Shown piece by piece: positions 7,270 through 55,333 of a DNA stretch of 64,000 bases; positions within the stretch are counted from its first letter, which is position 1; each line of letters begins with the position of its first letter. The stretch lies in the NCBI GenBank assembly GCA_937139365.1, contig CAKZPT010000091.1:1974-65973 (forward strand), given 5' to 3'. Source of the stretch: an uncultured bacterium. Lineage in GTDB: Bacteria > Verrucomicrobiota > Kiritimatiellia > PWTM01. The translations under genes were made by a program, and so were the position numbers. Below the pieces are notes generated by a model. The model was not told the origin of the DNA and searched no databases. It saw only the letters and a list, made by a program, of their open reading frames with translations.

Positions 7270-7466
7270 GAGCGGACCGCGGTGGCGAGGGCGGGGCGGG
7301 GCGCGGTTCCCTGAAGGTCCTGAGCTCGTTCGAGCAGCGGGCAGCGACGACCTCACCAAGTTGTGGCCTTGCGATCGGCACAGGTGGCCATCGGCCTCCG
7401 TAGGGCTCGCCCGTGGTCGTCCCGTGCTATTGCGAGGGGCCTGGGCGAACCGAGATCTGCAGACGA

Positions 7467-7492
7467 GGACACAGTTAATAAAGTCCGGCCCC
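7467..7492. repeat. 26-nt AT-rich intergenic element GGACACAGTTAATAAAGTCCGGCCCC, copy 1 of 2
   Basis: Exact 26/26 identity with 59489-59514. Both copies are intergenic and both are preceded by AGGGGCCTG 20-35 nt upstream. The internal GGAC/GTCC can form a 4-bp stem around the AT-rich loop. Confidence 0.6.
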
Positions 7493-7788
7493 CCGAAATT
7501 TCGAACGACGCGGCCCAATATGGTCCTGAAGTCCGCGTTCGCACGGTCGGTGGCGGGCGTCCGGCTTGCGTTGCAGGGAGGACTAGTTGTTGCAGGGCTC
7601 ATGCTTGCTCAAATCGCGGCAAACGGCCTCCCCGAGGCAAGGCCTAGCGAGTGGCGTGCGTGGCGGATCCCCCCCTCGTAGGGCTCAACCTTGATCCAGC
7701 CGCAATTCGCCTGTTACCGGGTCAGACCCTCCAGCGCGCCGTTTGTGCGGGGTCTGTGTCCATCGCCGCAAGGCGAACGCACTCCGGG

Positions 7789-7817
7789 TTGACACGCCGA
7801 AGGTCGTGACATAGATT
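7789..7817 (+). promoter_or_regulatory. Sigma70-like promoter driving the riboswitch leader
   Basis: TTGACA at 7789-7794, a 17-nt spacer, then TAGATT at 7812-7817. It lies about 15 nt upstream of the riboswitch-like sequence. Confidence 0.45.
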
Positions 7818-7829
7818 GCGCCCGGTTCT

Positions 7830-8005
7830 TTGGGAACATGGCCCGGGCGAACGGAAGTCCGTGAGATTCGGACGCGGTCGCGCCGCTGTAACCGGATACG
7901 AGATCCCACGGCCACTGCCGGTCGGTTGTCCCTTGCGGGGCGATGCCGGTGGGAAGGCGGGATGCCAGGCCAAGCCGGTAGCCAGAAGACGAGTCCGGGC
8001 CATTG
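7830..8005 (+). promoter_or_regulatory. Putative cobalamin (B12) riboswitch aptamer in the 5' leader of the PEP-CTERM gene
   Basis: Contains the hallmark cobalamin-riboswitch elements in the canonical order. First, GGAAGTCCGTGAGATTCGGAC ... CGCCGCTGTAACCGG (compare GGGAA..GGTGnnAATCC..GCCACTGTAAnCGG). Second, GGCCACTG. Third, GGGAAGGCGG. Fourth, a B12-box-like AGCCAGAAGAC..TCCGGGCC. A downstream hairpin TCTCC(8114-8118)/GGAGA(8127-8131) can sequester the SD AGGAGA just before ATG 8139. Confidence 0.6.
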
Positions 8006-8138
8006 CGGTGGATCGCCCCGCGGAGGGCGGATCGGCCGGCCGCGCCCGTCGCGCGGCGGCGCCCATGCCCGGGCGCTGCGTCGTCCAGGCTCTCCCCGAG
8101 CGATTGCGCCGCGTCTCCCGCGAATAGGAGATCGCATC

Positions 8139-8972
8139 ATGATCGCTCAGCGTGTGGCGGCCTGCGTTGCGGCCGGCCTGGTGTGTGCGGTGGGCTCGAC
8201 ACGGGTGTCGGGGGCGGTGATCGGATTCGAGGAGTACGGTCTGCCGCCGGCGTCCGCGGCCCCCTACACGGGTGGGTTCACCATCGGCGCCGCCCATTTC
8301 GCCAACACGTTCTCCGTCTGGGGCGCCTACACGAGCTGGAACGGCTTCGCCGTTTCGACGATGACTGACACCTCCACGCCGGGGCACGTGAACCAGTTCT
8401 CGTGCATCGCCGGCCACGGCGCGGGCGGCAGTCCGGCGTATGCAGTCGGCTACGACGACCACTGGAGCATCGGCCCGGATATGGTGGTCACGTTTCCGGA
8501 CGACGTCCAGTTGTTGAGCCTGCAGGTGAACAACACGACGTACGCCTACCTGAGCATGAGGGACGGAGATGCTTTCGCCAAAAAATTCGGTGGCCCGAGC
8601 GGGACCGATCCGGACTGGTTCCTACTGCGGCTTCAGGCGTTCGACGCGGCGAACGCCCTGTTGGGCACCATTGACTTCTACCTGGCCGACTACCGCTTTC
8701 CCGATCCGGCGGACGACTACATCGTAGCTACCTGGACGCCGATCGACCTGACGGCCTTTGGCTCCACGGTGCGGCGATTGGAGATGACGCTAGACTCGAG
8801 CGACGTCGGTCCGTGGGGCGTGAACACGCCGACCTACGTGGCGGTGGACAATCTCCAGTATATCCCCGAGCCGGCGGCGGCGGGGCTGGCGGTGCTGGGC
8901 GCGGCCGCGGCGGCGCTTCTCCGCCGGCGGCTGGCCGCGGCGGTCGCAGAGGCGGTGGATGGAGCGGAATAA
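8139..8972 (+). CDS. PEP-CTERM-anchored secreted protein; the globular domain resembles the DUF4465 / BtuH-like surface-protein family (family assignment from memory, not searched)
   Basis: Signal peptide MIAQRVAACVAAGLVCAVGS. The C-terminal PEP-CTERM sorting signal is PEPAAAGLAVLGAAAAALLRRR. ATG 8139 is preceded by the SD AGGAGA. It lies immediately downstream of the riboswitch-like leader. Stop codon TAA. Confidence 0.7.
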   Translation: MIAQRVAACVAAGLVCAVGSTRVSGAVIGFEEYGLPPASAAPYTGGFTIGAAHFANTFSVWGAYTSWNGFAVSTMTDTSTPGHVNQFSCIAGHGAGGSPAYAVGYDDHWSIGPDMVVTFPDDVQLLSLQVNNTTYAYLSMRDGDAFAKKFGGPSGTDPDWFLLRLQAFDAANALLGTIDFYLADYRFPDPADDYIVATWTPIDLTAFGSTVRRLEMTLDSSDVGPWGVNTPTYVAVDNLQYIPEPAAAGLAVLGAAAAALLRRRLAAAVAEAVDGAE

Positions 8973-9717
8973 TCGCGCCGGGGCGACGTTGGTCGAGACC
9001 CTGGCCGTCGTCGCGGTCATTGCGGCGACGCTGGCCTTGTTGGCCCCCGGGCTGCGCGCCGCGCGGGACGGCGCGTTGAGGGCGGCCTGCGCCTCCAACC
9101 TCCGCCAAGTTCACATGGCTTGGACCGCGTATCTGGCGGATCACGAAGGCCGGTTTTTCCCGTTTCGCGAGGACGTCGCCGGCGGCGTGTTGTGGTACTG
9201 GGGTTTCGAGCCCGGGGGAGGCGGGCCGGAGGGCGACCGTCCGCTGGACAAGAGCCGCGCGCGGCTGGCGCCGTACCTCGACCATGGCGCGGCGGAAATC
9301 TGTCCGACGCTGCCGTTGCGCGCCCCCTATTTCAAACGCAAATTTCAGATCGCAAGCTACGGATACGGCCTGAACGGCTATCTGCTCGACGGATTGCCGG
9401 GAACGGCCCGGATGGGAGTGATGCTGCTGCAGGACGTCCAACGGCCGGCGGAGACGATCGCCTGGGGCGACTGCATCCAAATCAATACGTGGCAGGCGCC
9501 CGCCTCGCCCGAACGGCCGATGCTGGAGGAGTGGTACGTCCTCGACAATTTCCCGCCGCCCCATTTCCATTTCCGCCACGGGCGGCGCGCGAACGTGACG
9601 ATGGTGGATGGCAGCCTGCGGACCTTCGAGCCCCATTCGCTGGATCCTCGCTGCGACGGCCGGGCCGGCTATATCGATCCGCCGAGGGAAGAGCGATGGC
9701 TGCTGACCCGAAAGTGA
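8959..9717 (+). CDS. Prepilin-type N-terminal cleavage/methylation domain protein with DUF1559 (H-X9-DG) domain
   Basis: N-terminus GATLVETLAVVAVIAATLALLAP is pseudopilin-like. The C-terminal motif is HGRRANVTMVDGS, i.e. H-X9-DG. The gene overlaps the 3' end of the PEP-CTERM gene by 14 bp, so it is probably co-transcribed. Confidence 0.7.
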   Translation: MERNNRAGATLVETLAVVAVIAATLALLAPGLRAARDGALRAACASNLRQVHMAWTAYLADHEGRFFPFREDVAGGVLWYWGFEPGGGGPEGDRPLDKSRARLAPYLDHGAAEICPTLPLRAPYFKRKFQIASYGYGLNGYLLDGLPGTARMGVMLLQDVQRPAETIAWGDCIQINTWQAPASPERPMLEEWYVLDNFPPPHFHFRHGRRANVTMVDGSLRTFEPHSLDPRCDGRAGYIDPPREERWLLTRK

Positions 9718-9758
9718 GCCGCCGCCGCGCGTGAACTTCGGGCCTCCGGCCGGCTATA

Positions 9759-10610
9759 GTGGGGCCGATGCGGATCCGAATCGAGAGCGCGCGAAACGAG
9801 CGGGTGAAACTGGCGGTCCGGCTCCGGGATCGCCGTGCTCGCGACGAAGAAGGCCTGACGTTGATCGAAGGTTACCGCGAAAACCTCCGCGCCCTCGAGG
9901 CCGGGGTCCGGCCGGCCGCGTTCTTTTTCTGCCGGGACCTGTTCCTTGGCTCGAACGAGGACGACCTCTTGCGGCGGGCAGCGGCCGCCGGGGCCGACCT
10001 GCTCGACTGCGCGGAGCCGGTGTTCCGTCGAATATCCTATCGCGACCGTCCCGACGGGCTTCTCTCGATCGCGCCGATTGTCCGGCGCACCTTGGCCGAC
10101 CTGATCCTACCAGCCGCGCCGTTGCTGCTGGTGGTCGAGAGCGTGGAGAAACCGGGCAACCTTGGGACGATGCTGCGCAGCGCGGACGCGGCGGGGGCGG
10201 ACGCGGTGGTGATGTGCGATCCGCGGACCGACCTGTACAACCCGAACACCGTCCGGGCGAGCCTCGGCACGCTGTTCACCGTGCCGGTTACGGTCGCTTC
10301 CAGCCCGGAGGCGCTCTCGTGGTTGCGGGCGAGGAAGGTGCGCATCCTCGCCGGAACGCCGTCGGCGGAGCGGCTGCACTTCGAGTGCGACATGACCGGG
10401 CCGGTCGCCATCGCGGTCGGCGCCGAGCAATATGGCCTGAGCGCCCTGTGGATGGGGGCGGCGGACGAACGGGTACGCATCCCGATGCTGGGCCGCTGCG
10501 ACTCCCTGAACGTCGCGTCGGCGGCGACGCTGCTGCTCTACGAGGCGGTCCGGCAGCGGTGGCCGTCGCGTCAGGATTCCACGACGTCCGGCCCGCCGTC
10601 GAGCGCCTGA
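9759..10610 (+). CDS. TrmH/SpoU family RNA 2'-O-methyltransferase
   Basis: SPOUT core motifs are present (VVESVEKPGNLGTMLRSADAAGADAVV ... IAVGAEQYGLS ... RIPMLGRCDSLNVASAATLLLYE). Confidence 0.75.
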   Translation: MGPMRIRIESARNERVKLAVRLRDRRARDEEGLTLIEGYRENLRALEAGVRPAAFFFCRDLFLGSNEDDLLRRAAAAGADLLDCAEPVFRRISYRDRPDGLLSIAPIVRRTLADLILPAAPLLLVVESVEKPGNLGTMLRSADAAGADAVVMCDPRTDLYNPNTVRASLGTLFTVPVTVASSPEALSWLRARKVRILAGTPSAERLHFECDMTGPVAIAVGAEQYGLSALWMGAADERVRIPMLGRCDSLNVASAATLLLYEAVRQRWPSRQDSTTSGPPSSA

Positions 10611-12559
10611 CGGACCGCGAAGAGCAGTCCGGCGCGGGTGAAAGGCTTGGAGATCACCGGCACGCGGGCCCGCTCGGAGACGGTCGCGAACGGTTCGTGC
10701 GCGTAGCCGGTCATGCACATGGCGCGCAGCTCGGGACGGAGCTTCAACATCCGGTCGATCAGCTCAGGCCCCGAGAGGCCCGGCATGATGATGTCGGTGA
10801 GCACCAAGTCGAACCGCGATGGCTCCCGTTCGAACGCGTGCAGCGCCTCGATGCCGTTGGACGCCTCGACCACCTCGTAGCCGCCGGCCTTCAGCATCCG
10901 GCCGGCGAGGTTCAGGACGCCCCGCTCGTCGTCCACCACGAGGATGGTTTCGGTTCCGCCCCGCACCGTTGCGGAGCGGTCGGGGGCGGCGATGGGCACG
11001 GTGTCGGGCTGGTAGGGGAAGTAGAGCGTGAACACCGTCCCCCCCTCGGGTCGCGCGGCGACCTCACACCCGCCGCCAAAGGCCAGCGCAATGGACCGGA
11101 CCACGGCCAGCGCCATTCCGGTGCCTTTTTCGCCGGGGCGACGATAGAAGGGCTCGAAGGCGTGGGCGAGGTCCTCCTGGGTCGGCGTCGGCCCGTTGTC
11201 CTCGACCTGCAGGCGCACCAACGCCCCCTCGGGCAGGCCGGGCCGCGTCCGGACGAACTCCGCGTTGACGACGACGACGTCGGTGGATAGCTGGAGGCGT
11301 CCGTGCGGCGGCAGCACGTCCCGTGCGCGGATCGCAAGGTTCATCACCGCCTGGCTCAGGCGGCCGGGATCGCCGACGATGATGCAGGGCTGTTCGTCGA
11401 GCAGCGTGACCAGCTCGATGTCCTTGCCCATCGTCCGGCGCAGCAGGCGGTCCATGTCGCGGACGACCTCGTTGACGTCCATCGGGACCCGCTCGCCCTC
11501 GCTGGAGCGTCCAAACGTCTGAAGCTGGCGCACCAGCGTTTCGGCTCGCCGGGCCGCCTGCATCATTTCTGCGATGTCGTTTCGCGCGGTTTCGGGGATG
11601 CCGGGGTCGTGCTCCAGCAGTTGGCCGTAGCCGAGAATGGCCGTGAGCATGTTGTTGAAGTCGTGGGCGATGCCGGCCGACAGACGGCCGATCGTCTCCA
11701 TTTTTTGGAGTTCGGCGAGGCGTTCGCGGCTGGCGTTCAGCTCCTCCTCCGCTCGGCGGCGGTCGGTCAGGTCCCGGATGTGCAGGATCGCCGCCATCTG
11801 TCCCTCGGCGCCGATGCGGCTGGCGCGAATCTCCACCTCGATCGCCCGACCCTCGGCGCCGTACAGCCAACGGTCGCGGCCGCTCCGATCGCCCTGAAAC
11901 CACTGCTTGAGGTCCTGCCGGAGCTCGGCCGTGCGGTCGGGCGGCGTCAGCTCCAGCAGGGTTCGCCCTAGCAGTGTGTCCCGGCGATGGCCAGTCAACG
12001 CCGTGGCGGCGGGGTTGGCTTCGAGAATAGTTCCGTCGGATCCCACAACGACGATGGCGTCGGGGGAGTTTTCCACCAGCAGGCGATAGCGCTCCTCCAT
12101 CGCCCAAAGATCGCTGGTGCGCTTGCGGAGGACCGTTTGAAGCGCCCGCTGGCGGCGCAGGGCGTCCGATCGCCGGCGGAGGCAGCGAACCAAGGCGATG
12201 ACGACGGTCTCGAACGATGCCGGTTCGCCCTCGTCGAGAACCACCTCCGCACCCGCCGCCACGAGCGCCCGGCGTTGTTCGTCGGAAACTGGACCTTTGG
12301 ACGCGACCACCACCGCCGGCCCGAGGGTGGCTGGATCACTCCGTGCCTGGCGGCACAACTCCGCCACCGCCGGGTCGTCGGGCCGGGCGAACGCAACGAC
12401 CACGTCCGGCGCGTCGTCGCCCGTTACGCGCGGTCCGGCGGCCGACGGCGAGGGCACCGCGTCCACCCGGCAATCGCCCAATTCACCGGCAATCCTTCCG
12501 CGAAACCGCGAAAGAACATCGCCGGGGGCGCCAGCCACGAGAATGTGGCCATTTTTCAT
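10571..12559 (-). CDS. Hybrid sensor histidine kinase / response regulator: N-terminal pseudo-receiver, PAS, HisKA, HATPase_c, C-terminal REC
   Basis: H-box is RLSAGIAHDFNNMLTAILGY. G-boxes GTGMALAVV and GGTVFTLYFP are present. The C-terminal receiver reads ILVVDDERGVLNL...DLVLTDIIMPGLSG. Confidence 0.8.
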   Translation of the reverse strand: MKNGHILVAGAPGDVLSRFRGRIAGELGDCRVDAVPSPSAAGPRVTGDDAPDVVVAFARPDDPAVAELCRQARSDPATLGPAVVVASKGPVSDEQRRALVAAGAEVVLDEGEPASFETVVIALVRCLRRRSDALRRQRALQTVLRKRTSDLWAMEERYRLLVENSPDAIVVVGSDGTILEANPAATALTGHRRDTLLGRTLLELTPPDRTAELRQDLKQWFQGDRSGRDRWLYGAEGRAIEVEIRASRIGAEGQMAAILHIRDLTDRRRAEEELNASRERLAELQKMETIGRLSAGIAHDFNNMLTAILGYGQLLEHDPGIPETARNDIAEMMQAARRAETLVRQLQTFGRSSEGERVPMDVNEVVRDMDRLLRRTMGKDIELVTLLDEQPCIIVGDPGRLSQAVMNLAIRARDVLPPHGRLQLSTDVVVVNAEFVRTRPGLPEGALVRLQVEDNGPTPTQEDLAHAFEPFYRRPGEKGTGMALAVVRSIALAFGGGCEVAARPEGGTVFTLYFPYQPDTVPIAAPDRSATVRGGTETILVVDDERGVLNLAGRMLKAGGYEVVEASNGIEALHAFEREPSRFDLVLTDIIMPGLSGPELIDRMLKLRPELRAMCMTGYAHEPFATVSERARVPVISKPFTRAGLLFAVRQALDGGPDVVES

Positions 12560-15095: not shown

Positions 15096-18000
15096 TCAGG
15101 GACGGCCCGCCTCCGCGACCTCGCGGGCGACGATGGGCGCAACGATGCGGAAGCCGACGTTGAACACGCGCCGCCATTCGGGATACGCCCACCGGGCGGC
15201 TGCGCTCACCCGGCGGGGCGGGTCGAAGAACGAACCGCTGCGCACGACCCTTGGCCCGAGTGCGGCAGGGTCGTTTCGGCCGTCCTCGTCAATCCATGGG
15301 TAGGGGGCGTATCGCGATAGAGTCCACTCCGCCGCGTTGCCGATCATGTCGGCCAAACCGAGGCGGTCGGTCCCGGACACGCCCACGGGGGCGGTCACGA
15401 CATGGCCGTCGTCGTGGCTGGCGGGCGCAGCCCCCTCGCCGTCCACCCAGAGGTGCTCTACCCCGCCGGTGATCAAGGGCTGGCCCGCCAGCGGTGCGAG
15501 GAAGGCGGCGTCGGCAAGGTTCGGAAGAATGCTGACGGGCGGCTCTGCCGCCGCGCGGGCCGCGTACTCCCACTGGGCCTCGGTCGGCAGTTCGAAACGC
15601 TCCCCCGTGATGTCGCTGAGGCGCCGGCAGAATTCCCGGGCGTCGAGCCACGACACCCGGCCGACCCACTAGTCGTCGCCGTCCAGCGAAAGACCATCGC
15701 CCTCCGGTTGCGCATGGCGCCGGAGATACCGACCGCTCGAGTGTCCCGGCATCAGCCGCCGGAACTGGCGGTTCGAGATCTCGGTCCGCGACATCCAAAA
15801 CGGCGCCACGCGCACCCGGCAGGGCGGGGCCGTGTCGTTCGGGCCCGCGTCGGTCCCCATCGTGAACTCGCCCCCGGGGATCTCGACCAGTTCGATCCGC
15901 ACACCGTCCCCGAGGTCGAGGACGCGATCCCTGCCAGGCTGGGGATGCAGCGGTGAAACGGGGGGCGGCGGCTGAATCCCGGTGGCGGCGCTGGGGGAAA
16001 AAGGCGGGGGCCGGTACGGCCGGGTTTCCGGTATGGCCTCGGGATCGTCGGGCGGCCCGCCCGCCATCGCCCACATCTCCATCCGGCGCCGATGCATTGG
16101 GGCCACAAGCGGCGAGATTTCGCCCCACGTGCCGAAAAAGGGGGCGTTGAGATCCGCCCAGGTAACGAGCCGTTCCCACCCCTCCCGGTCCAGAGCCACG
16201 CCGCGGTGGCCAGAGCGAAGCATTTGAACGAGCGGGCTGGTGTCGACGTGGTATTCGCCGGGCCCGAGGAGTCCGACCCCGTCCTCGATGCCCACCCGGC
16301 GGACACGGGCCACGAGGGCATCGTAGGCGGGGGAATGGCGGATGCGGCCGCCCGTCGCCTCGCGCATGGCCGCCGGCATGCGATCGATGGCGAGTTTCGA
16401 TAGCGGATGGCAGCGTACTCCGGCGCTCCGCCGCGGAGGTCGGGCAGCGAGGAGTCGATGCCGTTGTGACAGCGGACACAGTGGTGGTCGAGCACTGGCT
16501 GAACCTCGCGGGAGAACGAGAAGCCGCGCGGCGGTCCCAGCCAGGGCTGTGGGGCCGCCGGCGACCGGCCGAGCGCGTGCCCAGCCCTGGCGGGCGGGGC
16601 ATGGTGGGCCGGCTCGTGGCGGCCGACGCAGGAGACGTGTTCGCCGGGCATGGCCGTGTAGCAGCTCCGCATGATCTGCACGGCCGCGCCGTCGGCATCG
16701 ATGGCCTGGAAGGCGAGCGGCGTGCGCGCCGGCACGCGGAAGAACGCCGAGCCATCGTTCTCGACGGGCACGGTTCCGATGATGCGCATGGCATCCCACG
16801 GACCCCCGCGGCCGATCAGGTCGGGGCCGGCCGTGTCGAGGTAGCCGAAGTGGAAGGCAACCAGCCGTAGCGCACGGACCGTGCCGCGGGGCACGCCGGC
16901 GAGACCGGGCCCCTGGTACACGTCGTGGATGTAGACGATGGCGTCCGTTTGCGACTCGTCGACCCGGTCCGGAATCGCCGGCGGCCTCGGGCGGGGCACG
17001 AGGACGATCGGCTCCAAAAGAGCGTCACCGGGCATCTCGAAGAACGGGACAACGTTGTCGTGGACGTCGGCCACGGCCAGCGCCCAGTTCGAGGTCGGCG
17101 ACGCCTTCACCGAGACCGGCATCGTGGTCTCGTCCACCGGTCACGGAGTAAGGAACCTCGGCCAGGCGCCGCCGACGAGGGGTTGTCGGCGATGCGGCGT
17201 TCCACGGGCTGTCCGCAGCCCGAGATCCGGGGAATTCCACCCCCCTCGGCGGCGCCGAGCCGCGTGTCCTCGACCGCCAGCCATCCCATGCGGTGGGGCC
17301 CGCGGTAGCCGCTGAGAATCGCCGCAATCCGGCCCGGCGCGCCGGGCATCTCGCGCGGGAAATAGAGCGCGTTTGGGAACCACGAATTGCTGCCGTACAG
17401 GGCCCGCTGTCCGGTGCCGTCGGGGTTCATCGCCGTCAACAGCCGCAAGGAATATGTGGTTGATGCCGGCGTATTCCCAGCGGCTGTACACGACCTGTCC
17501 GTTCGAGAGGACGGCGGGGTGGAGGTCGTGGTCTGGTCGAAGCAAAGCTGCCGCAAGCCACTTCCATCGGCGTTCATGCGGTAGAGGACGCAGACGCGCT
17601 TGAGGCCGTGCCAGCAGGGCACGGACTGAAACGTCGCCGTGGCGCCGAACACGATGCGGCCGTCGGGCAGCCAACACGGATCGAAGGCATGCACCTCGTG
17701 CGGCAGACGCGAGACCGTCCGGACGCCGGTTCCGTCCGCACCGATCTCGCACACCTCCCAGCCGTTGGGCGTGGAGCGGGTGAACAACAGGCTATGGCCG
17801 TCCCAATCTGGATCCACCTCGCCGACGTAACCGCCCTCTGGTGGCGCATACAGGGGGGCCCACCGCCATCCGACCGGTGAGCGCTCGAGACGGCCGATCT
17901 CATTGTCGTAGCCGGTCCGTTCGAGGGAACTGTTGCACTCGTGGTTGGACGGCAGGCTGATCTCGCGTCCGTCGTCGCCGCTCCAGGAGATCCGTTGGTC

Positions 18001-19253: not shown

Positions 19254-19649
19254 ATGTCTGTATATTGCCCCGATTGCGGCCACCTGTTGCGAACGGCGCA
19301 CGAGAAAGGGGCCCCCCTTACCTCATGCGTCGAATGCCATCGGCCTCAGTCGACGGCCCGCGAGCGTCAGCGCGCCGGATCTGGCACGGTCGGGCGGTGG
19401 GTGCGGCGCGGCGTCCGGTTGGCGGCAGTCGCAATAGCGGCCGGGTTGTTGCTCCCCGCGATGTTGCGAGTTCCGGCGGTGCGGGTGGCGGCGAGGTGGT
19501 TTGGCGTGCCGGCCCCGCGAATGCCCGCGCGGGCATGGTGGTTGCCGGAGGAGCCCGCGGCGGAGTCGCTGCGCTCGGCGTTGGGGTTGTTGCTGCTGTA
19601 CCTGGGCATTCGGCCGCCCAAGCGGGACCGCCGGCGGGGGCGCCTCTAG
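19254..19649 (+). CDS. Hypothetical small protein with a zinc-ribbon (CPDCG...CVECH) and one hydrophobic segment
   Basis: ORF only. Weak support; it lies convergent to, and overlaps the stop of, the large histidine kinase. Confidence 0.3.
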   Translation: MSVYCPDCGHLLRTAHEKGAPLTSCVECHRPQSTARERQRAGSGTVGRWVRRGVRLAAVAIAAGLLLPAMLRVPAVRVAARWFGVPAPRMPARAWWLPEEPAAESLRSALGLLLLYLGIRPPKRDRRRGRL

Positions 19650-22600
19650 CAGGGGCTTGAGGCGGAAGGTGGCCGGCCGCCCGCGAGCACGGTGCGAAGC
19701 TGCCCCACCAAATCGACCGTCGTGTAGGGCTTTTGAAGAAACGCGGCGAACCCCTTGACCGCCAGCCGTTCCTCCAGCTCGCTGGCGCTGTAGCCGCTGG
19801 CGAGGATCACGCGGGCCTCGGGATGGATCTGCCGGATCCGCCGGAACGTCTCCTCACCGTTCAGCTGCGGCATGGTCAGGTCGAGGATCACACATCGGAT
19901 TCGGTCACGGTTCAGCCGGTACAGCTCCACCGCCTCGATGCCATCAACCGCCGTTAGCACCTCGAATCCGATGCGCTCGAGCATCCGGGCGCACAGCGCA
20001 CGGACGGATTCTTCGTCGTCCACAAGGAGGATCGTTCCCTCGCCGCGCCACTCCTCGGCCGGGCTGGCCAGAGGAGGTCCATCTGGCGTGGGTTCGGTGA
20101 CGGCGGGCAGCAACACCTTGAACAGCGATCCCCGGCCGGGCTCGCTATAGACCTTGACGGCTCCCCGATGGCCGCGGACGATGCCCATCACCGCCGATAG
20201 GCCGAGGCCCCGGCCGGAGAACTTGGTGGTGAAAAACGGCTCGAAGATCCTTGAGAGGGTTTTCGAGTCCATGCCGCAGCCGGTGTCGGCGACCTCGAGG
20301 GTGATGTACAGGCCTTCGGGCAGATCCCTTTCGAAGCCAATGGCGGCCAGATACGCGCGGTCGAACGTTGCCGCGCCGGTCGTGATGGAGATGGTTCCGC
20401 TACGGTCCCCGATGGCCTCCGCCGCGTTGATCACAAGATTCATCACAACTTGCCGTAGCTGAGAGGGGTCGCCACGGATGAACGGAAGCCCGGGCTCGAG
20501 GTGGAGGCTGAGCAGCACCCGCTTCGAGATGGTCGTCTTCAGCAGATGGACCATCTCCTCGATCAAACGGTTCAGGTCGAAGGTTTCGACGACGAACCGG
20601 CCCCGGCCGGCATACGCGAGCATCTGCCGGCACAGCTCGGCGGCGCGCCGGCTGGCGGTTTCGATCTCCATTAGGTGCTGGCGGCCGGAGCTGCCGCTGG
20701 GCAGCTCCTGCATCGCCAGATCGGCGTTGCCCAGGATCGCCATCAGGATGTTGTTGAAGTCGTGCGCGATCCCGCCGGCCAGAACCCCAAGGCTTTCGAG
20801 GCGCTGCACTTCGGTCATTCGCCTCTCGATCCGCTTGTGCTCCTCCTCCGCCTTCCGCACGGCCGTGATGTCGCGGATGAACTCCACGGCGCCGGTCACC
20901 TCACCGGAGACCGGATCGCGCATGGGGTAGGAGAAGATCTCGAGCCACTCCACCTCGCTGCCCGGCGGCGCCGGGATAACTTCATGCTCCGGACGTCCGC
21001 TGGCGAGGCATCGGAGGGTGGGGCAATGGTCGCAAGGCTCCGTACGGCATCGAAAGACCTCGTGGCATCTTCCCCCCTCGACGGGGGATTCCGGCGCGAA
21101 CCAGCGGCGCACCGTGTCGTTGGCGAAGCGGATCGTCAGGTCCTTGTTCAACACGCAGACGCCGTCCTGGATGCTCAGCAGGATGTCGTGCAGCAGCTGG
21201 CGGTTCCGCAGGATCTCCTCGGCCGCGCGTTTGCGGTCCGTGATGTCGTAGAAGAGCGTTGCGAACTGCCCCGGCGCCGTCCGAAAGGCGGTGACGGCGT
21301 AATGACGCCCCGTCGGCGCATGGGACGACTCGAACCGCATGGTTTCGCCCGTCTCCACGACGCGGCCGTAGGCCGCGATCCAGGGCTCCTCCGTACCCGG
21401 CAAGACTTCGCGCAGGGTCCGGCCGATCAGTTCAGCTGCCTTCAGGCCGGTCTGCCGCTCGAAGGCGGGATTGACTTCGAGAAACCGGTAGTCGCAGGGC
21501 CGACCGGCGTCATCGAAGATCATTTCGTGCAACGCAAATCCGTCGTCCATCGTATTGAACAGCCGCCGGTACCGCTCCTGGCTTTCGGCCAGCTCGGAGC
21601 GCATCCGGAGCTCCTCGGTGACGTCGCGAAACACCACCACAACGCCGTCCGCCCGGCCGTCGGCAGTGGGGAGAATGGGCGAGGCGGTGCCGGCGATCCG
21701 CCGCCACGATCCGTCGGCGCGAACCAGCGCCGCCTCCGCGCTCAGCGAGGCCGGTTTGCGGTGGCGGATCGCGAGGGCAGCAATGTCCTCCGCCGGCTGG
21801 CCGGTAAAGGTGAGGACGACGCGGAAGACCTCGCCCAGCGGCCGCCCGAGGGCGGCCGCGACCGGAAGGCCAGTCATAGTTTCCGCAGCGGAGTTCATCA
21901 GCATGATGCGGCCGTCAGCGGCCGCGGCCAGAACGCCCTCGGCCATCGACTCCAGCGTGATGCGGAGGTCCTCCTCGCGCTCGCGAAGGGTGCGGGTTTG
22001 CGCCAACACCTCGCGTTCGAGCCTCTCCTCCCGGCTGCGAAAGAGGCCGACGACGATGCCCAGCAGGGCAACAAGACCGGTTTCCACCACGATGAGTGCC
22101 GTCGCCATGGGGCTGGACATCAACGTAGGGCGGCCGGGAGATGCGAACGACAGCGCGAAGACCTGCCCCCCCCAATACATCGGGATCTCGACGCCATCCG
22201 AACGTCGTTTCCCAGCCGGCAACGCAAGGAGCTGTGCGGTCGGCTCTACGCCGCCAGGAATACGGCTGCCCAGTACGGCCATCATCCTCTCTAGGTTGAC
22301 GACCGCTCCCACCCAGCCGGCGGGCTCCTCGTTCCGGCCCCTGACCGCGGCCACCATCATGCGGAACGGGAGCACGGGATCCGGTGCCGATAGGGCCGAC
22401 GAGCCGGTGGCGTGCGCGGCCTCCAGCGCATTTGAATAGGTGGCGAACGCGAGCAGGTTCGTACCGGTCCATTCGTGTTGCGAATCCCGTGGCACGACGA
22501 AACCAACCGGTGCCGACATTCCGGTGGCCGTGGCCGTTTCGCGGCCCTGTTCGGCGGAGGAGAGCGGTGCCGACCTGTTGGTGACGGACGCGCGAGGGGC

Positions 22601-23566
22601 CCAAAACAGCAGTTCCACCGGAACGTTGCGGACCAGCGGGCCGGCGAACACGTTGAACTCCCCCTCCGTCACCGCCTCGCTTCCCTCGAAAAAGCTGGCA
22701 AGGGACTCGACGTGCGTCTGAATGTCCCGCATGGCCGACCGCAACATCGCCGCGATCTCCGCAGCCCGCCGCTCGAACTGCCTGCGATGTTCATGGCCGG
22801 CGAGAAACAGTGTCAGCTGTGAGGCGCCAAGCCAGAGCACCGCCCCCACTAGGACCGTCAGGACCGTTTCGAGATGCCGCCAGCGCAGCGCGGTTTCATG
22901 GGGCTGCCGGGACCGCCAAAAAAAGACCGCCACCCCCGCGGCCAGCACGAGCACCAGGGCGGCGCCGAACCCATGGGCCCACCTGCTGATGCGACGAATC
23001 TCCTCGCTCCATAGCGACGCGGGAATCGCGTAGGCCACGGCGGCGAGGACTTCGCCGGTCCGCGGATCCCGAACCGGTGCCAGGGCGACGACGGAACGAG
23101 GGGACAAGACGGTCAGGCCGGCTGCGTCGGGGAGCTTGCCGCGCGACGGGACCAGATGAATGTATTCGGCAGGGGGGATGCCGTCGACGGCCGCCGCGGG
23201 ACCTAGCCGAATCTCGCCGTCCCGTTCCACGATCAGCGCGAGCAGGGATGCGCCGAGGTGGTCGGTCCAGCACCGGAGGTAATTCTGCAGCCGGCGGTAG
23301 ACGAGGGAGACCTCGCCCGTGGTGCCGAAGGGGATGTTGCGGATCAGGTCCGGACGGAGTGCCGCAGCGAGCTGCTCGGCTTCGGAGATGAACCGCTGTT
23401 TCGATCGTTCGGCCGCAAAGCGTCGAGCCCAGTACACCCCGCCAACCCACACCGTGATTGCGAGCGCGGCGGACCCCGCGATCCAGACCATGGCTAGGGC
23501 AGAATGACGCCGCCGGGCTCCTGTGGCCCCAGATGCCTCGCCCGGCTGGCCCGGTGTCATGTTCAC
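19646..23566 (-). CDS. Large hybrid sensor histidine kinase. Domains in order: N-terminal TM/periplasmic sensor region, multiple PAS domains, HisKA, HATPase_c, C-terminal REC.
   Basis: H-box LESLGVLAGGIAHDFNNILMAILG. G-box GCGMDSKTLSRIFEPFFTTKFSGRGLGLSAV. Receiver ILLVDDEESVRAL...DLTMPQLNGEE. At least three PAS-like segments. Stop codon TAG. Confidence 0.8.
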   Translation of the reverse strand: MNMTPGQPGEASGATGARRRHSALAMVWIAGSAALAITVWVGGVYWARRFAAERSKQRFISEAEQLAAALRPDLIRNIPFGTTGEVSLVYRRLQNYLRCWTDHLGASLLALIVERDGEIRLGPAAAVDGIPPAEYIHLVPSRGKLPDAAGLTVLSPRSVVALAPVRDPRTGEVLAAVAYAIPASLWSEEIRRISRWAHGFGAALVLVLAAGVAVFFWRSRQPHETALRWRHLETVLTVLVGAVLWLGASQLTLFLAGHEHRRQFERRAAEIAAMLRSAMRDIQTHVESLASFFEGSEAVTEGEFNVFAGPLVRNVPVELLFWAPRASVTNRSAPLSSAEQGRETATATGMSAPVGFVVPRDSQHEWTGTNLLAFATYSNALEAAHATGSSALSAPDPVLPFRMMVAAVRGRNEEPAGWVGAVVNLERMMAVLGSRIPGGVEPTAQLLALPAGKRRSDGVEIPMYWGGQVFALSFASPGRPTLMSSPMATALIVVETGLVALLGIVVGLFRSREERLEREVLAQTRTLREREEDLRITLESMAEGVLAAAADGRIMLMNSAAETMTGLPVAAALGRPLGEVFRVVLTFTGQPAEDIAALAIRHRKPASLSAEAALVRADGSWRRIAGTASPILPTADGRADGVVVVFRDVTEELRMRSELAESQERYRRLFNTMDDGFALHEMIFDDAGRPCDYRFLEVNPAFERQTGLKAAELIGRTLREVLPGTEEPWIAAYGRVVETGETMRFESSHAPTGRHYAVTAFRTAPGQFATLFYDITDRKRAAEEILRNRQLLHDILLSIQDGVCVLNKDLTIRFANDTVRRWFAPESPVEGGRCHEVFRCRTEPCDHCPTLRCLASGRPEHEVIPAPPGSEVEWLEIFSYPMRDPVSGEVTGAVEFIRDITAVRKAEEEHKRIERRMTEVQRLESLGVLAGGIAHDFNNILMAILGNADLAMQELPSGSSGRQHLMEIETASRRAAELCRQMLAYAGRGRFVVETFDLNRLIEEMVHLLKTTISKRVLLSLHLEPGLPFIRGDPSQLRQVVMNLVINAAEAIGDRSGTISITTGAATFDRAYLAAIGFERDLPEGLYITLEVADTGCGMDSKTLSRIFEPFFTTKFSGRGLGLSAVMGIVRGHRGAVKVYSEPGRGSLFKVLLPAVTEPTPDGPPLASPAEEWRGEGTILLVDDEESVRALCARMLERIGFEVLTAVDGIEAVELYRLNRDRIRCVILDLTMPQLNGEETFRRIRQIHPEARVILASGYSASELEERLAVKGFAAFLQKPYTTVDLVGQLRTVLAGGRPPSASSPC

Positions 23567-25881: not shown

Positions 25882-28431
25882 ATGGTCGACGGAGTCGGGA
25901 GTCGTTTCATGTCCTCCAGTCGCTTTGCGGCAGGAGGCCGGCGATGTGAAGCCGTCGGCGCCGAGAGGTGGCAGCGCCGGGGCGGCGTCGGTCCGATTCC
26001 GGCGGCTGTCTGCGCTGTTGTCAGGGTGGTCGTCGCCGGGCTGGCGACGAGTGCAACCGCGGCGCCAGCAACCGCGTCCCCGCGCGAGCTTCGCGTGGCG
26101 ATCGACGACAACTATCCGCCCTACATCTTCCGTGATTCGTCGGGTGGGCTGACCGGCTATCTCCCGGAGTGGTGGGCGCTGTGGGAGAAGTCGACCGGCG
26201 TTCGCGCCGTTTTGCTGGCGACCAACTGGGCCGAGGCGCAACGGTTGATGGACACCGGCTTGGCCGACGTGATCGACACCCTCTTCGACACGCCCGAACG
26301 CCGGCGGAAGTTCGAGTTTTCTGAGCCCTACGCCGAGATCGAGGTGCCGCTGTTCGTGCACCGCGACGTCGCCGGCATTCACGACGTGACGACGCTGCGT
26401 GGTTTCGTCGTCGGCGCGAAGGCGGGCGATGCCGCCGTGGACTGGTTGCGGCGCAACGGCGTGACGAACGTCGAAAAGCATGCCAGCTATGAGGGCCTGA
26501 TCCGGACGGCGGCCGACGGCGGGGTGCGGGTGTTCACCGTGGACCGCCCGCCGGCGATGTACTATATGGCGAAGCTGGACATCAAGGATCGCTTTCGCGA
26601 GGCGATGATCCTGTACACGGGCCGGTTTCACCGGGCGGTCCGTGCGGGCCGCGCGGATCTGCTGGCGGAGATCGAAGAGGGCTTCCGGCGGATCCCGGTC
26701 TCCGAGGTGCGCCGCCTTGGGAGAAAGTGGTTTGGGCGGCAAATCCTCCCGCCGGTGCTGGTTCGGGGGGTCCGGCTCTGCGTAACCGTGGGCGCGGCGA
26801 TCGGCGCGACGCTGGTGGTCTTCATCCTGGTCCTTCGCCGCCAGGTGCGGCAGAAGACGTCGGAACTGGAGGCGGCCGTCGCCGCGCAGGAGAAAACGGC
26901 GGAGCATTTGCGGGGCATCCTTCGGGCGGCGCCGGCGGGCATCGGTGTGGTCCGGCACCGCGTGTTCCTCGACGTTAACGACCACATGTGCCGGATGACC
27001 GGTTATTCCCGGGAGGAGCTGATCGGCGCCAACGCGCGGATGTTGTATCCCGACGAGGCGGAGTTCGAACGAGTCGGCCGTCTTAAGTACGAGGAAATCC
27101 GGCGTATGGGGGCCGGCGCCATCGAGACGCGGTGGCGGCGACGCGACGGGACGCTTTGCAATGTGCACCTGAGCGCCGTTGCGTTCCGCCCGGCGGATCC
27201 GGACTCCGAGGTGGTCTTCGTCGCGCTCGACATCACGGAGGTGAAACGCACGGCGGCCCGTGCGCTCGAGCTGGAACGCGAATTGCAGCATGCCCAGAAG
27301 CTCGAGAGTCTCGGCCTGATGGCAGGGGGCATTGCGCACGACTTCAACAACCTGCTGACTGCGGTGCTGGGCCACGTGTCGCTCGCGATGGAGGCGCTCC
27401 CGCCCGCATCGCCGATCCGGCCGGATCTAGCGGCGGCGCAGGACGCCGTCCGACGGGCGGCAGACCTCACACGCCAGTTGCTGGTGTACGCGGGACGCGC
27501 CGCCCCCAGCCGGTGTCCGCTGGACCTGACCGAAGTCGTCCGCGCCATGTTTCCGCTCGTGCGCCTCGGCGTGTCGAAAAAAATCGACTTTCGCTTTGAG
27601 TGCCGGGAGGGCCTGCCGAGGGTGGAGGCCGACCGCGCACAGGTGCAGCAGGTCGCCATGAACCTGATGCTCAACGCGGCCGAAGCGATCGGGGAAGGGA
27701 CGGGCACCGTCGTGGTCTCGGTGTATGCATGCCGGCCTGGCCCCGCCAACGGCTACCGCCCGCTGGCTCAGTCCCGCGAGGGCAACCACGTCGCCATCGA
27801 GGTCGCCGACAACGGATGTGGGATCTCCGCGGCAGACATGCCGAGAATCTTCGACCCTTTTTTCTCCAACAAGCAGTTCGGCCGCGGCCTTGGGTTGAGC
27901 GCGGTGCTGGGGGTGTTGCGTGGCCACGACGGGTTCATCGAGGTCCAAAGCGAGCCCGGCCGGGGGACGGTGTTCCGAGCGTTTTTCCCGGCGGCGGAGG
28001 GCGCGGTTCCGGCGGCCGGGACGGCGGCGGAGGAGGAGCCCGCCGTGGAGAAGAAGGGGAGGGGCTCTGGCGTGGTGCTGCTGGTGGACGACGAGGAGAG
28101 GCTGCGGGCCATCGGCGCGGCCATGCTTTGCCGGCTGGGCTTCACGGCCTGCACGGCGGCGGATGGCGACGCGGCGTGCGCCGCCACCCGCGCCACTCCG
28201 CCGGCGTGCGTGCTGATGGACCTGACGATGCCGCTCATGGACGGCGTCGAGGCGTTCCGCAGGCTTCGGGAGATCAACCCCACCGTGCCGGTCGTGTTGT
28301 GCAGCGGATACGATGAGGGCGAAAACGCCCGCCGATTCGGGCACGTCGGATTCGCCGGCTTTCTGCAGAAGCCCTACCACCTCCAACGGCTGGGCGCGGT
28401 GCTCAGGCGGGTTCTGGCGTCGTCCGGCTGA
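25882..28431 (+). CDS. Hybrid sensor histidine kinase with a periplasmic solute-binding (SBP_bac_3-like) sensor domain. Domains in order: SBP, TM, PAS, HisKA, HATPase_c, REC.
   Basis: The N-terminal segment ELRVAIDDNYPPYIFRDSSGGLTGYLPEWW...FDTPERRRKFEFSEPYAEIEVPLFVHRD matches amino-acid-binding periplasmic proteins. H-box LESLGLMAGGIAHDFNNLLTAVLG. C-terminal receiver VLLVDDEERLRAI...DLTMPLMDGVE. Confidence 0.8.
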   Translation: MVDGVGSRFMSSSRFAAGGRRCEAVGAERWQRRGGVGPIPAAVCAVVRVVVAGLATSATAAPATASPRELRVAIDDNYPPYIFRDSSGGLTGYLPEWWALWEKSTGVRAVLLATNWAEAQRLMDTGLADVIDTLFDTPERRRKFEFSEPYAEIEVPLFVHRDVAGIHDVTTLRGFVVGAKAGDAAVDWLRRNGVTNVEKHASYEGLIRTAADGGVRVFTVDRPPAMYYMAKLDIKDRFREAMILYTGRFHRAVRAGRADLLAEIEEGFRRIPVSEVRRLGRKWFGRQILPPVLVRGVRLCVTVGAAIGATLVVFILVLRRQVRQKTSELEAAVAAQEKTAEHLRGILRAAPAGIGVVRHRVFLDVNDHMCRMTGYSREELIGANARMLYPDEAEFERVGRLKYEEIRRMGAGAIETRWRRRDGTLCNVHLSAVAFRPADPDSEVVFVALDITEVKRTAARALELERELQHAQKLESLGLMAGGIAHDFNNLLTAVLGHVSLAMEALPPASPIRPDLAAAQDAVRRAADLTRQLLVYAGRAAPSRCPLDLTEVVRAMFPLVRLGVSKKIDFRFECREGLPRVEADRAQVQQVAMNLMLNAAEAIGEGTGTVVVSVYACRPGPANGYRPLAQSREGNHVAIEVADNGCGISAADMPRIFDPFFSNKQFGRGLGLSAVLGVLRGHDGFIEVQSEPGRGTVFRAFFPAAEGAVPAAGTAAEEEPAVEKKGRGSGVVLLVDDEERLRAIGAAMLCRLGFTACTAADGDAACAATRATPPACVLMDLTMPLMDGVEAFRRLREINPTVPVVLCSGYDEGENARRFGHVGFAGFLQKPYHLQRLGAVLRRVLASSG

Positions 28432-42314: not shown

Positions 42315-43499
42315 CTATTCGACGGACGAGAGGCGCCGCCGGAACGAGTCGGCCATGCCGCTGAGGAGGCTGTACATGGCCGGCACCAGTCCCAGCGTCA
42401 GCAGCGTGGCCGAGGTCAGACCGAACATGACGGCGACCGCCATCGGGGCCCACCAGGCGCTGGATTCGGACCCGGTGACCAGCCGCCACGGCCACGTGTG
42501 GATGTCCAGACTCCACCCGACCGCCATCGGAAACAGCCCGAGCACCGTGGTCGCCGCGGTGAGCAGGACGGGGCGCAGCCTACGGACACCGGCGACGACG
42601 ATCGCCTGGTGGCGGTCCATGCCCTGTGCCCGGAGCTGTCGGATGCAGTCGATCAGCACGATCGCGTTGTTGACGACGAAGCCGGCCAGCGTGATGACGC
42701 CCAGACCCGTCATGATGATGCCGAACTTCATCCGGCGGAGGATCAGGCGCCACATCACGCCGACCAGCGACAGCAGGACCGAGGAGAAGACAATGCCCGG
42801 GATTAAAACGGAGTTGAACTGGAGGACCAGGATCACGAGGATCGCCGCGCTGGCGACCATGAACGCGTGGAGCAGAAACCGGGCCGACTGCTGCATCTGG
42901 CGGTTCTCGCCGGTGAAGGCGACCGCGCACCCCGGCGGCACCGGCACGGCGGCCACCCGCGCCTTGACGTCGCGCAGGATCCGGTCCACGCCCCGGCCGG
43001 CGTCGTTGCCGCTGATCTTGATGACGCGCTTCTGGTCCTTGCGCTGGATGGCGACGCGGCCGGCCGCGTAGCGGAACGTCCCCAGCGACGTGATCGGGAC
43101 GGCGGCGCCAGACGGCGTCGGGATGCGCAACCGTTCCGTCCAGTCGAGCGTGGCGCGCTGGTCCGCGGGCAGGCGGACGGTAATGTCGTACTCCTCGGTC
43201 TCGCCCCGGAAGCGCCCCGCCTCGACGCCGTAGAGCGCCATGCGCAGGAACGTCCCGATCGACCGCGTGTCGCCGCCCAGCATCGCGGCCCGCTCGCGGT
43301 CGACGTGGAACTGGAGTTCGGGCAGCGCGTCCTCGAAGTCGTCGCGGAGGTCCACCAGCCCGGGGACGTCGGCGACGGCGCGGGCGATCTCGACGCCACG
43401 TTCGGCCTGTTCCACCGTGCGAGACGACGCCGCGACGGCCGCCGCCTCCCGCAGCCGAAGAATTGCCTCCTCCACCTCGAGCTGGATCGTCCGCTCCAT
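42315..43499 (-). pseudogene. C-terminal half (about 390 aa) of an RND (AcrB/HAE1-type) efflux transporter. The N-terminal roughly 650 aa are absent.
   Basis: Covers the second periplasmic loop plus TM8-12 (..RFLLHAFMVASAAILVILVLQFNSVLIPGIVFSSVLLSLVGV...). The ORF begins inside the periplasmic loop, with no TM7. The upstream space is occupied by the ABC exporter gene on the other strand. Confidence 0.6.
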
Positions 43500-55199: not shown

Positions 55200-55333
55200 A
55201 CGGGCTCCATTTGCACAAAATGACCCTTCGTTTGGATCCGGGCGACCTTGCATCGCCCAGCGAATCCCGGCGGCATGGGCGCGAAGGAACGGCTCCGGAC
55301 CGGCTCGGAAGGGTCGTTCGCGGGGAGCACGGG

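Follow-up and report, generated by a model that had tools for sequence, protein, structure and literature searches.

Members of microbial communities trade vitamin B12 and compete for it, and nearly all that is known of the accessory machinery that captures it (BtuG, BtuH and BtuJ) comes from gut Bacteroides. Our study concerns a locus in which a cobalamin riboswitch precedes the gene of a secreted DUF4465 protein and an overlapping gene for a type IV pilin-like protein (the partner), found in a 64-kb stretch of contig CAKZPT010000091.1; the whole of this stretch is referred to here as the window. It has been reported that the DUF4465 proteins of Bacteroides are BtuJ1 and BtuJ2, and that BtuH is a separate lipoprotein (bioRxiv 10.1101/2025.07.01.662609; PMC13398666). 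Eight divergent DUF4465 proteins bind B12, including D5EK51, the Haloferula protein 'Halo' and the protein 'Pan' of the planctomycete Mucisphaera (Clarke et al., FEBS Open Bio 2026, PMC13398666). According to the same work, the B12 site centres on a tyrosine conserved in the helix of the DE loop and on the NTPAY motif of the HI loop, and the WX and YA loops, which shape ligand specificity, vary across the family. The solved structures include 9HMU (D5EK51 of Coraliomargarita akajimensis with B12) and, from Bacteroides thetaiotaomicron, 9FCT and 9QPM (BtuJ1) and 9I2L (BtuJ2). On the side of regulation, a corrinoid-bound kissing loop between L5 (consensus UCCCG) and L13 stabilises the P13 hairpin that hides the ribosome-binding site in the riboswitches of Escherichia coli btuB and env8 (PMC10327014).

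With a probability of about 0.72, we read the locus as a corrinoid-repressed two-gene scavenging operon of a bacterium of the Planctomycetes-Verrucomicrobia-Chlamydiae (PVC) superphylum, probably from the Kiritimatiellota. Transcription would start near position 7824 from a sigma70-like promoter; with corrinoid bound, L5 (UCGCG) would pair with L13 (CGCGA), stabilise P13, hide the Shine-Dalgarno (SD) sequence and block translation at ATG 8139. When B12 is scarce, the cell would make a Sec-exported BtuJ-family beta-jellyroll corrinoid binder together with the coupled pilin-like protein. The PEP-CTERM-like tail of the binder would direct it to exosortase-type processing and surface attachment, and the partner would cooperate with it to bring corrinoid through the envelope, acting either as a (pseudo)pilus subunit or as a periplasmic receiver tethered to the inner membrane. 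The arrangement suggests a PVC-specific corrinoid-acquisition module without an adjacent BtuB, in which the BtuJ binding module has been redeployed, now carrying another surface-sorting signal and linked through operon and riboswitch to a pilin-like protein.

The original prediction for this DNA, a B12-responsive secreted corrinoid binder, was right in kind. Its statement that the combination was uncharacterised is only partly true: B12 binding by DUF4465 proteins of PVC bacteria was published in 2026 (PMC13398666), and riboswitch-controlled btuJ loci are known in Bacteroides. The newness lies in the PEP-CTERM-type sorting and, above all, in a riboswitch-linked subfamily of pilin-like proteins. 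The partner, which the prediction had missed, is the more novel component of the two.

The cobalamin riboswitch and the DUF4465 gene

The features on which the argument rests are the following, with nucleotide positions counted in the window.

7789-7817, + strand: predicted sigma70-type promoter, with the -35 box TTGACA at 7789-7794, a 17-nt spacer and the -10 box TAGATT at 7812-7817
7838-8003, + strand: cobalamin aptamer, from the 5' arm to the 3' arm of P1 (RF00174 and comparison of eight loci)
7838-7848 and 7993-8003, + strand: P1, an 11-bp helix directly flanking the core, formed by AUGGCCCGGGC and GUCCGGGCCAU (comparison of eight loci)
7878-7882, + strand: L5 loop UCGCG, at the position of the UCCCG consensus (Rfam structure line)
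7980-7992, + strand: B12 box (AGCCAGAAGACGA), which runs into the 3' arm of P1 and corresponds to the AGCCAGGAGAC block that is conserved in RF00174
8113-8132, + strand: P13 hairpin, with GUCUCC at 8113-8118, L13 (CGCGAAUA) at 8119-8126 and GGAGAU at 8127-8132, the 3' arm containing the SD
8139-8972, + strand: coding sequence of a 277-aa secreted DUF4465 protein (PF14717), with its ATG at 8139 and its stop at 8972
amino acids ~1-25 of this protein, + strand: signal peptide, the N-terminus being MIAQRVAACVAAGLVCAVGSTRVSG followed by AV
amino acids 64-239 (nt 8328-8855), + strand: DUF4465 domain (PF14717)
amino acids 242-264 (nt 8862-8930), + strand: PEP-CTERM-like tail, called from its motif, with hidden Markov models (HMMs) sub-threshold
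amino acids 265-277, + strand: 13-aa extension after the Arg cluster, read from the sequence
8959-9717, + strand: coding sequence of the 252-aa type IV pilin/pseudopilin-like H-X9-DG protein (prepilin motif, alpha-1 helix, H-x9-DG motif)

The cobalamin riboswitch that had been proposed upstream of the DUF4465 gene was recovered by cmscan as a match to RF00174 (Cobalamin) at 7807-8012 (+), with 68.3 bits against a gathering threshold of 31.5 (E 9.9e-15) and the full model covered (positions 1-189); in a search with all Rfam families it is the one cis-regulatory RNA of the 64 kb. All the conserved blocks quoted in its favour are present (GCCACTG at 7911-7917, GGGAAGGC at ~7951-7958 and the B12 box AGCCAGAAGAC at 7980-7990), as is the pairing of P1, and the B12 box is invariant or nearly so in the eight loci of the window's clade. 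The Rfam alignment forces a poor P1 and P2 on the window, and the Rfam match of its closest relatives starts at model position 47, so that these have no P2. We place the aptamer bounds at 7838-8003 because P1 was redefined from the eight loci with compensatory changes. The seven relatives of the window carry, at the same position, 10-bp helices of different sequence (shorter in L006 and L094), and RNAalifold applied to the eight aptamers (alignment A3) finds compensatory double changes in 14 of 47 pairs, six of them in P1. The covariance model and this covariation together show that a class-I-type cobalamin aptamer folds in the 5' untranslated region; corrinoid binding by it is predicted. RF00174 also lies 5' of the gene, on the same strand, in 22 of the 26 DUF4465 loci scanned, a sample from Planctomycetota, Verrucomicrobiota, Lentisphaerota and Myxococcota in which L004 and L084 are near-identical and two of the four misses are cut by contig ends.

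The putative TTGACA-17-TAGATT promoter named in the original prediction is present, as the sole sigma70-like site in 7270-9800 (10 of 12 matches; shuffle mean 0.2), and its -10 box lies 20 nt 5' of the aptamer start. The call is supported because a similar site (TTGACA-like, a spacer of 16 to 18 nt, TAnnnT) is found 19-30 nt 5' of P1 in six of the eight clade loci. With a transcription start predicted near 7824, the 870-bp leader previously described has to be read as an intergenic gap of 869 bp (7270-8138), from the end of a mechanosensitive-channel gene at 7269 to ATG 8139, of which only ~315 nt would be transcribed leader. A possible clash between promoter and aptamer (only ~3 nt separate the end of the -10 box, at 7817, from the start of the Rfam P1, at ~7820) was considered and dropped, given that the Rfam matches of the relatives start at model position 47 and the real P1 begins at 7838. 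A GUUCUUU(G/C) motif is conserved between the predicted start site and P1 (7824-7837 in the window, and in the leaders of L086 and L093), where Rfam aligns it as P2.

The small TCTCC/GGAGA hairpin that had been said to occlude the SD is real and corresponds to P13. The SD (GGAGA) lies in its 3' arm, 7 nt before ATG 8139, and the minimum free energy (MFE) fold lengthens the helix over the AUG. Its loop sequence CGCGA could form five perfect contiguous pairs with the UCGCG of L5, which is invariant in the eight clade loci, and all eight have a hairpin with a CGCG(A) loop over the SD at the same position, on stems that differ (CGUUCC/GGAACG, CGCCUC/GAGGCG, CUCC/GGAG, UCCGC/GCGGG, CCUC/GAGG and CCCC/GGGG in the others). 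No terminator-like site or intrinsic terminator was found on the + strand of the leader; the distant loci L016 and L008 have obvious intrinsic terminators instead. From the complementarity, the conservation in eight loci and the mechanism of btuB and env8, we infer that L5 and L13 may form a kissing-loop translational OFF switch, a claim that we limit to the clade of the window. Another candidate for L5, the T-loop hairpin CCG-UGAGAUU-CGG (7860-7872), is ruled out by the Rfam structure line.

In common with btuB and env8HyCbl, the window has an RF00174 aptamer, a potential for five contiguous L5-L13 pairs (the number in btuB) and a P13 that carries or abuts the ribosome-binding site. It differs from them in the genes regulated, in the lack of P2 in most members of its clade, in a GC-rich linker of ~110 nt between aptamer and P13 (8004-8112), and in the loops themselves, which read UCGCG and not UCCCG in L5, and CGCGA and not CGGGA in L13, so that the change from C to G in L5 is matched by one from G to C in L13. 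The comparison also yields eight natural variants of the putative kissing-loop platform in which an off-consensus L5/L13 pair is compensated.

As had been pointed out, the regulated gene is outside the classical targets of B12 regulons, and its product is a signal-peptide-bearing DUF4465 protein. The match to PF14717 (E 3.8e-49, 167.8 bits against a cutoff of 25) spans amino acids 64-239 and profile positions 3-176 of 176, which secures the family assignment, and the description of DUF4465 as a B12-binding family agrees with the eight published binders. The best sequence match in the PDB is 9hmu_A (phmmer E 8.5e-25), followed by 9qpm/9fct, 4jqr and 9i2l. An AlphaFold2 (AF2) model built with 78 homologues reaches a predicted local distance difference test score of 93.9, and its top nine Foldseek matches in the PDB are all DUF4465 structures (9hmu, E 2e-17; 4jqr, TM-score 0.67/0.82), so that the predicted fold is the augmented beta-jellyroll of the solved members. 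The equation of the family with BtuH was wrong: BtuH is absent from all PDB matches by sequence or by fold, which are all DUF4465/BtuJ entries, and the family is that of BtuJ. The B12-contacting tyrosines are kept as Y135 in NTTYAYL (modelled DE helix, residues 134-142) and Y233 in NTPTY (HI loop), and N229, T230, P231 and Y233 show little or no variation among the 78 homologues. Its homology to B12-bound structures and the conserved contacts suggest that the window protein would bind corrinoids with high affinity.

The window protein resembles BtuJ1 (BT1491) and BtuJ2 (BT1957) in its PF14717 domain, its beta-jellyroll (Foldseek E 3e-16 to 4e-13), its DE-helix tyrosine and its NTPxY HI loop, and all three are secreted and encoded in loci under B12-riboswitch control. 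It shares only 20-26% identity with them, however; the BtuJs are outer-membrane lipoproteins encoded beside btuB, btuG and btuFCD, whereas the window protein combines a Sec signal peptide with a PEP-CTERM-like tail, has no transporter gene beside it and comes with a pilin-like partner that the Bacteroidota loci do not have. D5EK51 (9HMU), for which B12 binding is experimental, is the closest solved relative (~30% identity) and comes from the same superphylum. It does not have the GPWGVN insertion that precedes the HI loop in the window protein, and its regulation, sorting signal and gene neighbours fall outside the analysis in PMC13398666. Within the family, we also observed open reading frames (ORFs) of up to ~2000 aa in Rhodopirellula and other Pirellulaceae (L018, L022, L023, L026, L029 and L039) that score >800 bits against the DUF4465 profile, equivalent to several DUF4465 repeats, and that lie behind a cobalamin riboswitch and a DUF1559-type gene where contig ends permit the view.

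The window protein ends in ...YIPEPAAAGLAVLGAAAAALLRRRLAAAVAEAVDGAE, laid out as IPEP-AAAGLAVLGAAAAALL-RRR-LAAAVAEAVDGAE, in which the PEP motif is followed by hydrophobic residues and then by a cluster of arginines. Together with the N-terminal signal peptide, the C-terminal PEP, the hydrophobic segment of ~18 residues and the Arg cluster are features shared with the PEP-CTERM/exosortase system. A comparable ending (P[EVIGA]P, hydrophobic segment, basic cluster) was seen for 83 of the 120 best homologues, with a strict PEP in 68 cases, and most of the homologues without such an ending have a type IX secretion system (T9SS) Por_Secre_tail, are lipoproteins or are tail-less. The chain ends exactly at the basic cluster in 26 of the 83; the closest relatives of the window protein (P0002-P0016) share its unusual continuation, with 8-13 residues past the Arg cluster. 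Several homologues carry precomputed PF07589 matches, and one record of the Joint Genome Institute (JGI) is named 'DUF4465/PEP-CTERM motif'. It is important to consider that only 'soluble domains' were cloned in PMC13398666, where neither PEP-CTERM nor exosortases are mentioned, and that the 9HMU chain ends in ...VVPE exactly at the position of the window's IPEP; D5EK51 probably has the same kind of PEP-type tail, removed with the soluble-domain construct. The C-terminus of the family looks like an exchangeable surface-sorting slot, for which a PEP-CTERM-type signal is the best reading in the window protein, and exosortase-type processing with surface attachment through the tail is plausible.

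The pilin-like partner gene across loci

The start of the partner gene overlaps the stop of the DUF4465 gene by 14 nt, which suggests that the two are translationally coupled. Its product has the prepilin motif RAG/ATLVE, in which E13 corresponds to E5 of pilins and is invariant in 85 homologues, followed by an alpha-1 helix modelled at residues 11-61 and by the H-x9-DG motif H207-GRRANVTMV-D217-G218, with H207 and D217 conserved at >=90%. The PF07963 profile is sub-threshold on the window partner (14.9 against 21.2), and the H-X9-DG model gave no match to it at E<=1 in an NCBIfam scan; many of its homologues have precomputed matches to PF07963 and PF07596, and JGI names them as prepilin-type cleavage/methylation and H-X9-DG proteins. 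The partner resembles the DUF1559/PF07596 H-X9-DG proteins (TIGR04294 is the name at JGI) in its prepilin G/xTLxE with the glutamate, its alpha-1 and its H-x9-DG motif, may share their pilin-like fold, and differs from them in being shorter (~250 aa), in being embedded in cobalamin-riboswitch operons and in belonging to a small group. Its profile retrieves 256 representatives at E<=1e-30 and 403,936 at E<=1e-3, by which measure it is a compact, sharply bounded subfamily inside a very large superfamily. The literature that we searched gave no function for any member of the DUF1559/H-X9-DG superfamily, no link to B12 for DUF1559/H-X9-DG or PEP-CTERM proteins, and no report that connects cobalamin riboswitches with pseudopilins.

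The partner lies directly 3' of the DUF4465 gene in L001, L006, L082, L086, L092, L093 and L094, and in all loci of the clade it overlaps or abuts the co-oriented gene before it. On the same contigs it is more conserved than the DUF4465 protein (78% vs 54%), and it was found in none of ~50 DUF4465 loci of Bacteroidota and Myxococcota. An independent test was based on four partner homologues (42-54% identity) that had not been selected through DUF4465. In all four loci the partner overlaps an upstream gene of 299-396 aa without a Pfam match, which is preceded by a gap of 450-580 nt, and in the three with DNA available (L088, L090 and L091) this gap contains RF00174, with scores of 67.2, 41.5 and 72.7 bits. 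The partner thus follows either DUF4465 or an unrelated secreted protein of ~370 aa, and a cobalamin riboswitch stands before the pair in every locus scanned. The members of this second family (40-51% mutual identity), in DUF4465's place between riboswitch and partner, are the following.

L088, 4824-6011: secreted protein of the ~370-aa family
L090, 4905-6014: secreted protein of the ~370-aa family
L091, 4901-6001: secreted protein of the ~370-aa family

These proteins have signal peptides and no PEP tail, and searches gave no Pfam match, no sequence relative in the PDB and no detectable similarity to DUF4465. We regard the family as a candidate for a new corrinoid-binding or corrinoid-handling protein.

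Further context comes from four long partner representatives in which the upstream gene is of BtuF type (Peripla_BP_2; P0369 and P0393) or ends in PEP-CTERM (P0377 and P0404). We rejected these as true fusions, since they look like merged calls of the partner with its upstream gene, and they are still informative on its neighbours. In L086 a convergent Peripla_BP_2/FecCD/ABC_tran cluster of BtuFCD type lies beside the pair, and ExbB-ExbD-TonB genes are nearby in L082 and L092. Among the minor observations, the riboswitch operon of the Phycisphaerales locus L084 has a gene at 10819-12102 that separates DUF4465 from the gene of a 308-aa N_methyl protein; the C-terminus of its 428-aa product is weakly dockerin-like. 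A similar arrangement, of dockerin-like region, PEP-CTERM motif and partner, is seen in P0377 (904 aa). In P0366, P0396 and P0376, short N-terminal Cys_rich_CWC or DUF5522 segments precede the prepilin motif and may be merged small ORFs or real extensions.

Across Kiritimatiellota, Lentisphaerota and Planctomycetota, we tentatively consider it possible that this PVC subfamily of pilin-like proteins is a core component of B12-regulated acquisition that works with interchangeable secreted capture proteins, either PEP-CTERM-tagged BtuJ/DUF4465 or the unannotated ~370-aa family. If this were true, a hand-over based on a pilus or pseudopilus may replace the BtuB-BtuG outer-membrane route, and the DUF1559/H-X9-DG superfamily would receive its first functional assignment. 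PVC genomes carry hundreds of H-X9-DG/DUF1559 paralogues, among which the riboswitch-linked subfamily offers a testable entry point.

Weighing the proposed operon against other explanations

Several of our results weigh against the reading of the locus as a corrinoid-repressed scavenging operon. L5 and L13 are invariant in the clade, so the kissing loop rests on complementarity and position, without internal covariation; an exact complement of L5 was not found in several distant loci (L004, L012, L015, L017 and others). RNAalifold prefers a 5-bp P5 stem that would bury part of L5, and by its MFE z-score the expression platform does not surpass shuffled sequences. Four Pfam batches found no cob/cbi genes, btuB, TonB-dependent receptor or btuFCD in the 64-kb window, so a route from binder to cell is not visible at the locus. 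With regard to the tail, both PF07589 (15.4 vs 20.7) and TIGR02595 (12.8 vs 16) score below their curated cutoffs, the 13-residue extension past the Arg cluster is atypical for PEP-CTERM, and Pfam identified no exosortase (EpsH/Xrt) among the ~50 ORFs of the window or in its short upstream flank (L081). Thus none of the companions to which the original prediction had pointed (btuB, btuFCD and an exosortase) lies within the window.

The tail is where an alternative survives best. It is somewhat unlikely that it represents a plain transmembrane anchor, or a variant signal for another system, which would leave the binder tethered to the membrane and facing the periplasm instead of displayed on the surface. 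Canonical PEP-CTERM domains end at or directly past the Arg cluster, and the window protein differs from that system in its sub-cutoff scores, in an acidic or Ala-rich extension of 13 residues and in the lack of an exosortase in the window; its PEP-type tail is also the only one among the window ORFs, and the AF2 model draws residues 245-275 as one continuous helix, all of which fits an anchor. Against it stand the recurrence of [VI]PEP, hydrophobic segment and RRR in 83 of 120 homologues, which are spread over many PVC lineages and several of which have PF07589 matches, and the T9SS tails and lipoproteins of Bacteroidota, which argue for a surface-sorting slot; short sorting-signal HMMs, moreover, are often sub-threshold. 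The PEP-CTERM signal of the original prediction is therefore upheld as to its motif, hydrophobic helix, basic cluster and recurrence in homologues, and is not backed by the two profiles.

We consider it unlikely that the DUF4465 protein is instead an extracellular reservoir or sequestering agent used in competition for corrinoids, or that it binds another tetrapyrrole or a corrinoid precursor. BtuJ1 of B. thetaiotaomicron has been proposed as an extracellular B12 reservoir that hands B12 onward (bioRxiv 10.1101/2025.07.01.662609), no transporter gene is adjacent in the window, and the WX and YA loops that shape specificity are variable in the family. Control by a B12 riboswitch nevertheless ties expression to the B12 status of the cell itself, and relatives of the locus stand beside a BtuFCD-type transporter (L086) or ExbB-ExbD-TonB (L082 and L092), which is more in line with a scavenging operon.

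A regulation that does not pass through the SD is less probable still, be it mainly transcriptional (for example, Rho-dependent termination in the 110-nt linker), exerted on mRNA stability, or that of an activating ON switch. The length of the linker (8004-8112) and a platform fold no more stable than shuffles would suit such a mechanism, activating corrinoid riboswitches exist (PMC10327014), and L016 and L008 use intrinsic terminators. The leader, however, has no terminator-like site on its + strand, the members of the clade keep the SD in the 3' arm of P13, the complementarity of L13 and L5 matches that of btuB and env8, which are repressing switches, and uptake or scavenging functions are expected to be repressed by B12.

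Finally, it is very improbable that the pilin-like gene is an incidental neighbour with no connection to B12. This reading can point to the great abundance of H-X9-DG/DUF1559 genes in PVC genomes, to the size of the superfamily (403,936 representatives at E<=1e-3), to generic members found at other places in the flanks of L005, L074 and L082 (on the opposite strand), and to the head domain of the partner, which has no similarity to a known B12 binder. Against it, the subfamily counts only 256 representatives at E<=1e-30, its gene overlaps or adjoins the one before it on the same strand throughout the clade, it is conserved at 78% vs 54%, comes with a riboswitch in all three loci picked through the partner, is missing from the ~50 Bacteroidota and Myxococcota DUF4465 loci and appears in merged calls beside BtuF-type proteins.

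Lineage and other features of the window

The window has a G+C content of 69.6%. Among named relatives, its threonine synthase comes closest to those of 'Verrucomicrobia bacterium A1' (72% identity) and of metagenome-assembled genomes from Kiritimatiellae/Kiritimatiellia (64-70%), which bears out the PVC lineage originally proposed and makes Kiritimatiellota the most likely assignment. Apart from the operon, the window consists of housekeeping and sensory genes.

Upstream of the promoter, the ~520 bp at 7270-7788 contain no ORF with a coding-type G+C content at third codon positions and no Rfam match, and an AT-rich patch at ~7470-7500 carries a terminator-like hairpin on the minus strand. Downstream, a SpoU/TrmH-type RNA methyltransferase gene (9759-10610, +) begins 41 nt past the partner gene, and the interval contains no terminator-like site; the same gene type occurs ~1 kb 3' of the partner gene in L093, so that the order DUF4465, partner, SpoU methylase is common to L093 and the window. 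Its co-transcription with the operon in the window is possible, and a functional meaning is unlikely.

Several window genes appear split or truncated. The L-rhamnose isomerase gene consists of two overlapping ORFs, 55211-55738 and 55620-56597 (profile positions 3-126 and 269-417), and the further cases, at 42318-43499, 51479-52111 and 15099-15656, comprise an AcrB fragment (profile positions 658-1020 only), a URO-D fragment and an FGE-sulfatase fragment; assembly errors that cause frameshifts, or pseudogenes, may explain them. A 461-aa ORF at 15755-17137 (-) matches the middle domain of the hydrazine-synthase alpha subunit (PF18582, 85 bits), although the context is not that of anammox. A span of 18 kb holds three large hybrid histidine kinases, at 10574-12559 (-), 19649-23566 (-) and 25882-28428 (+), that combine PAS and receiver domains, one of them with a CHASE domain and one with an SBP_bac_3 sensor domain.

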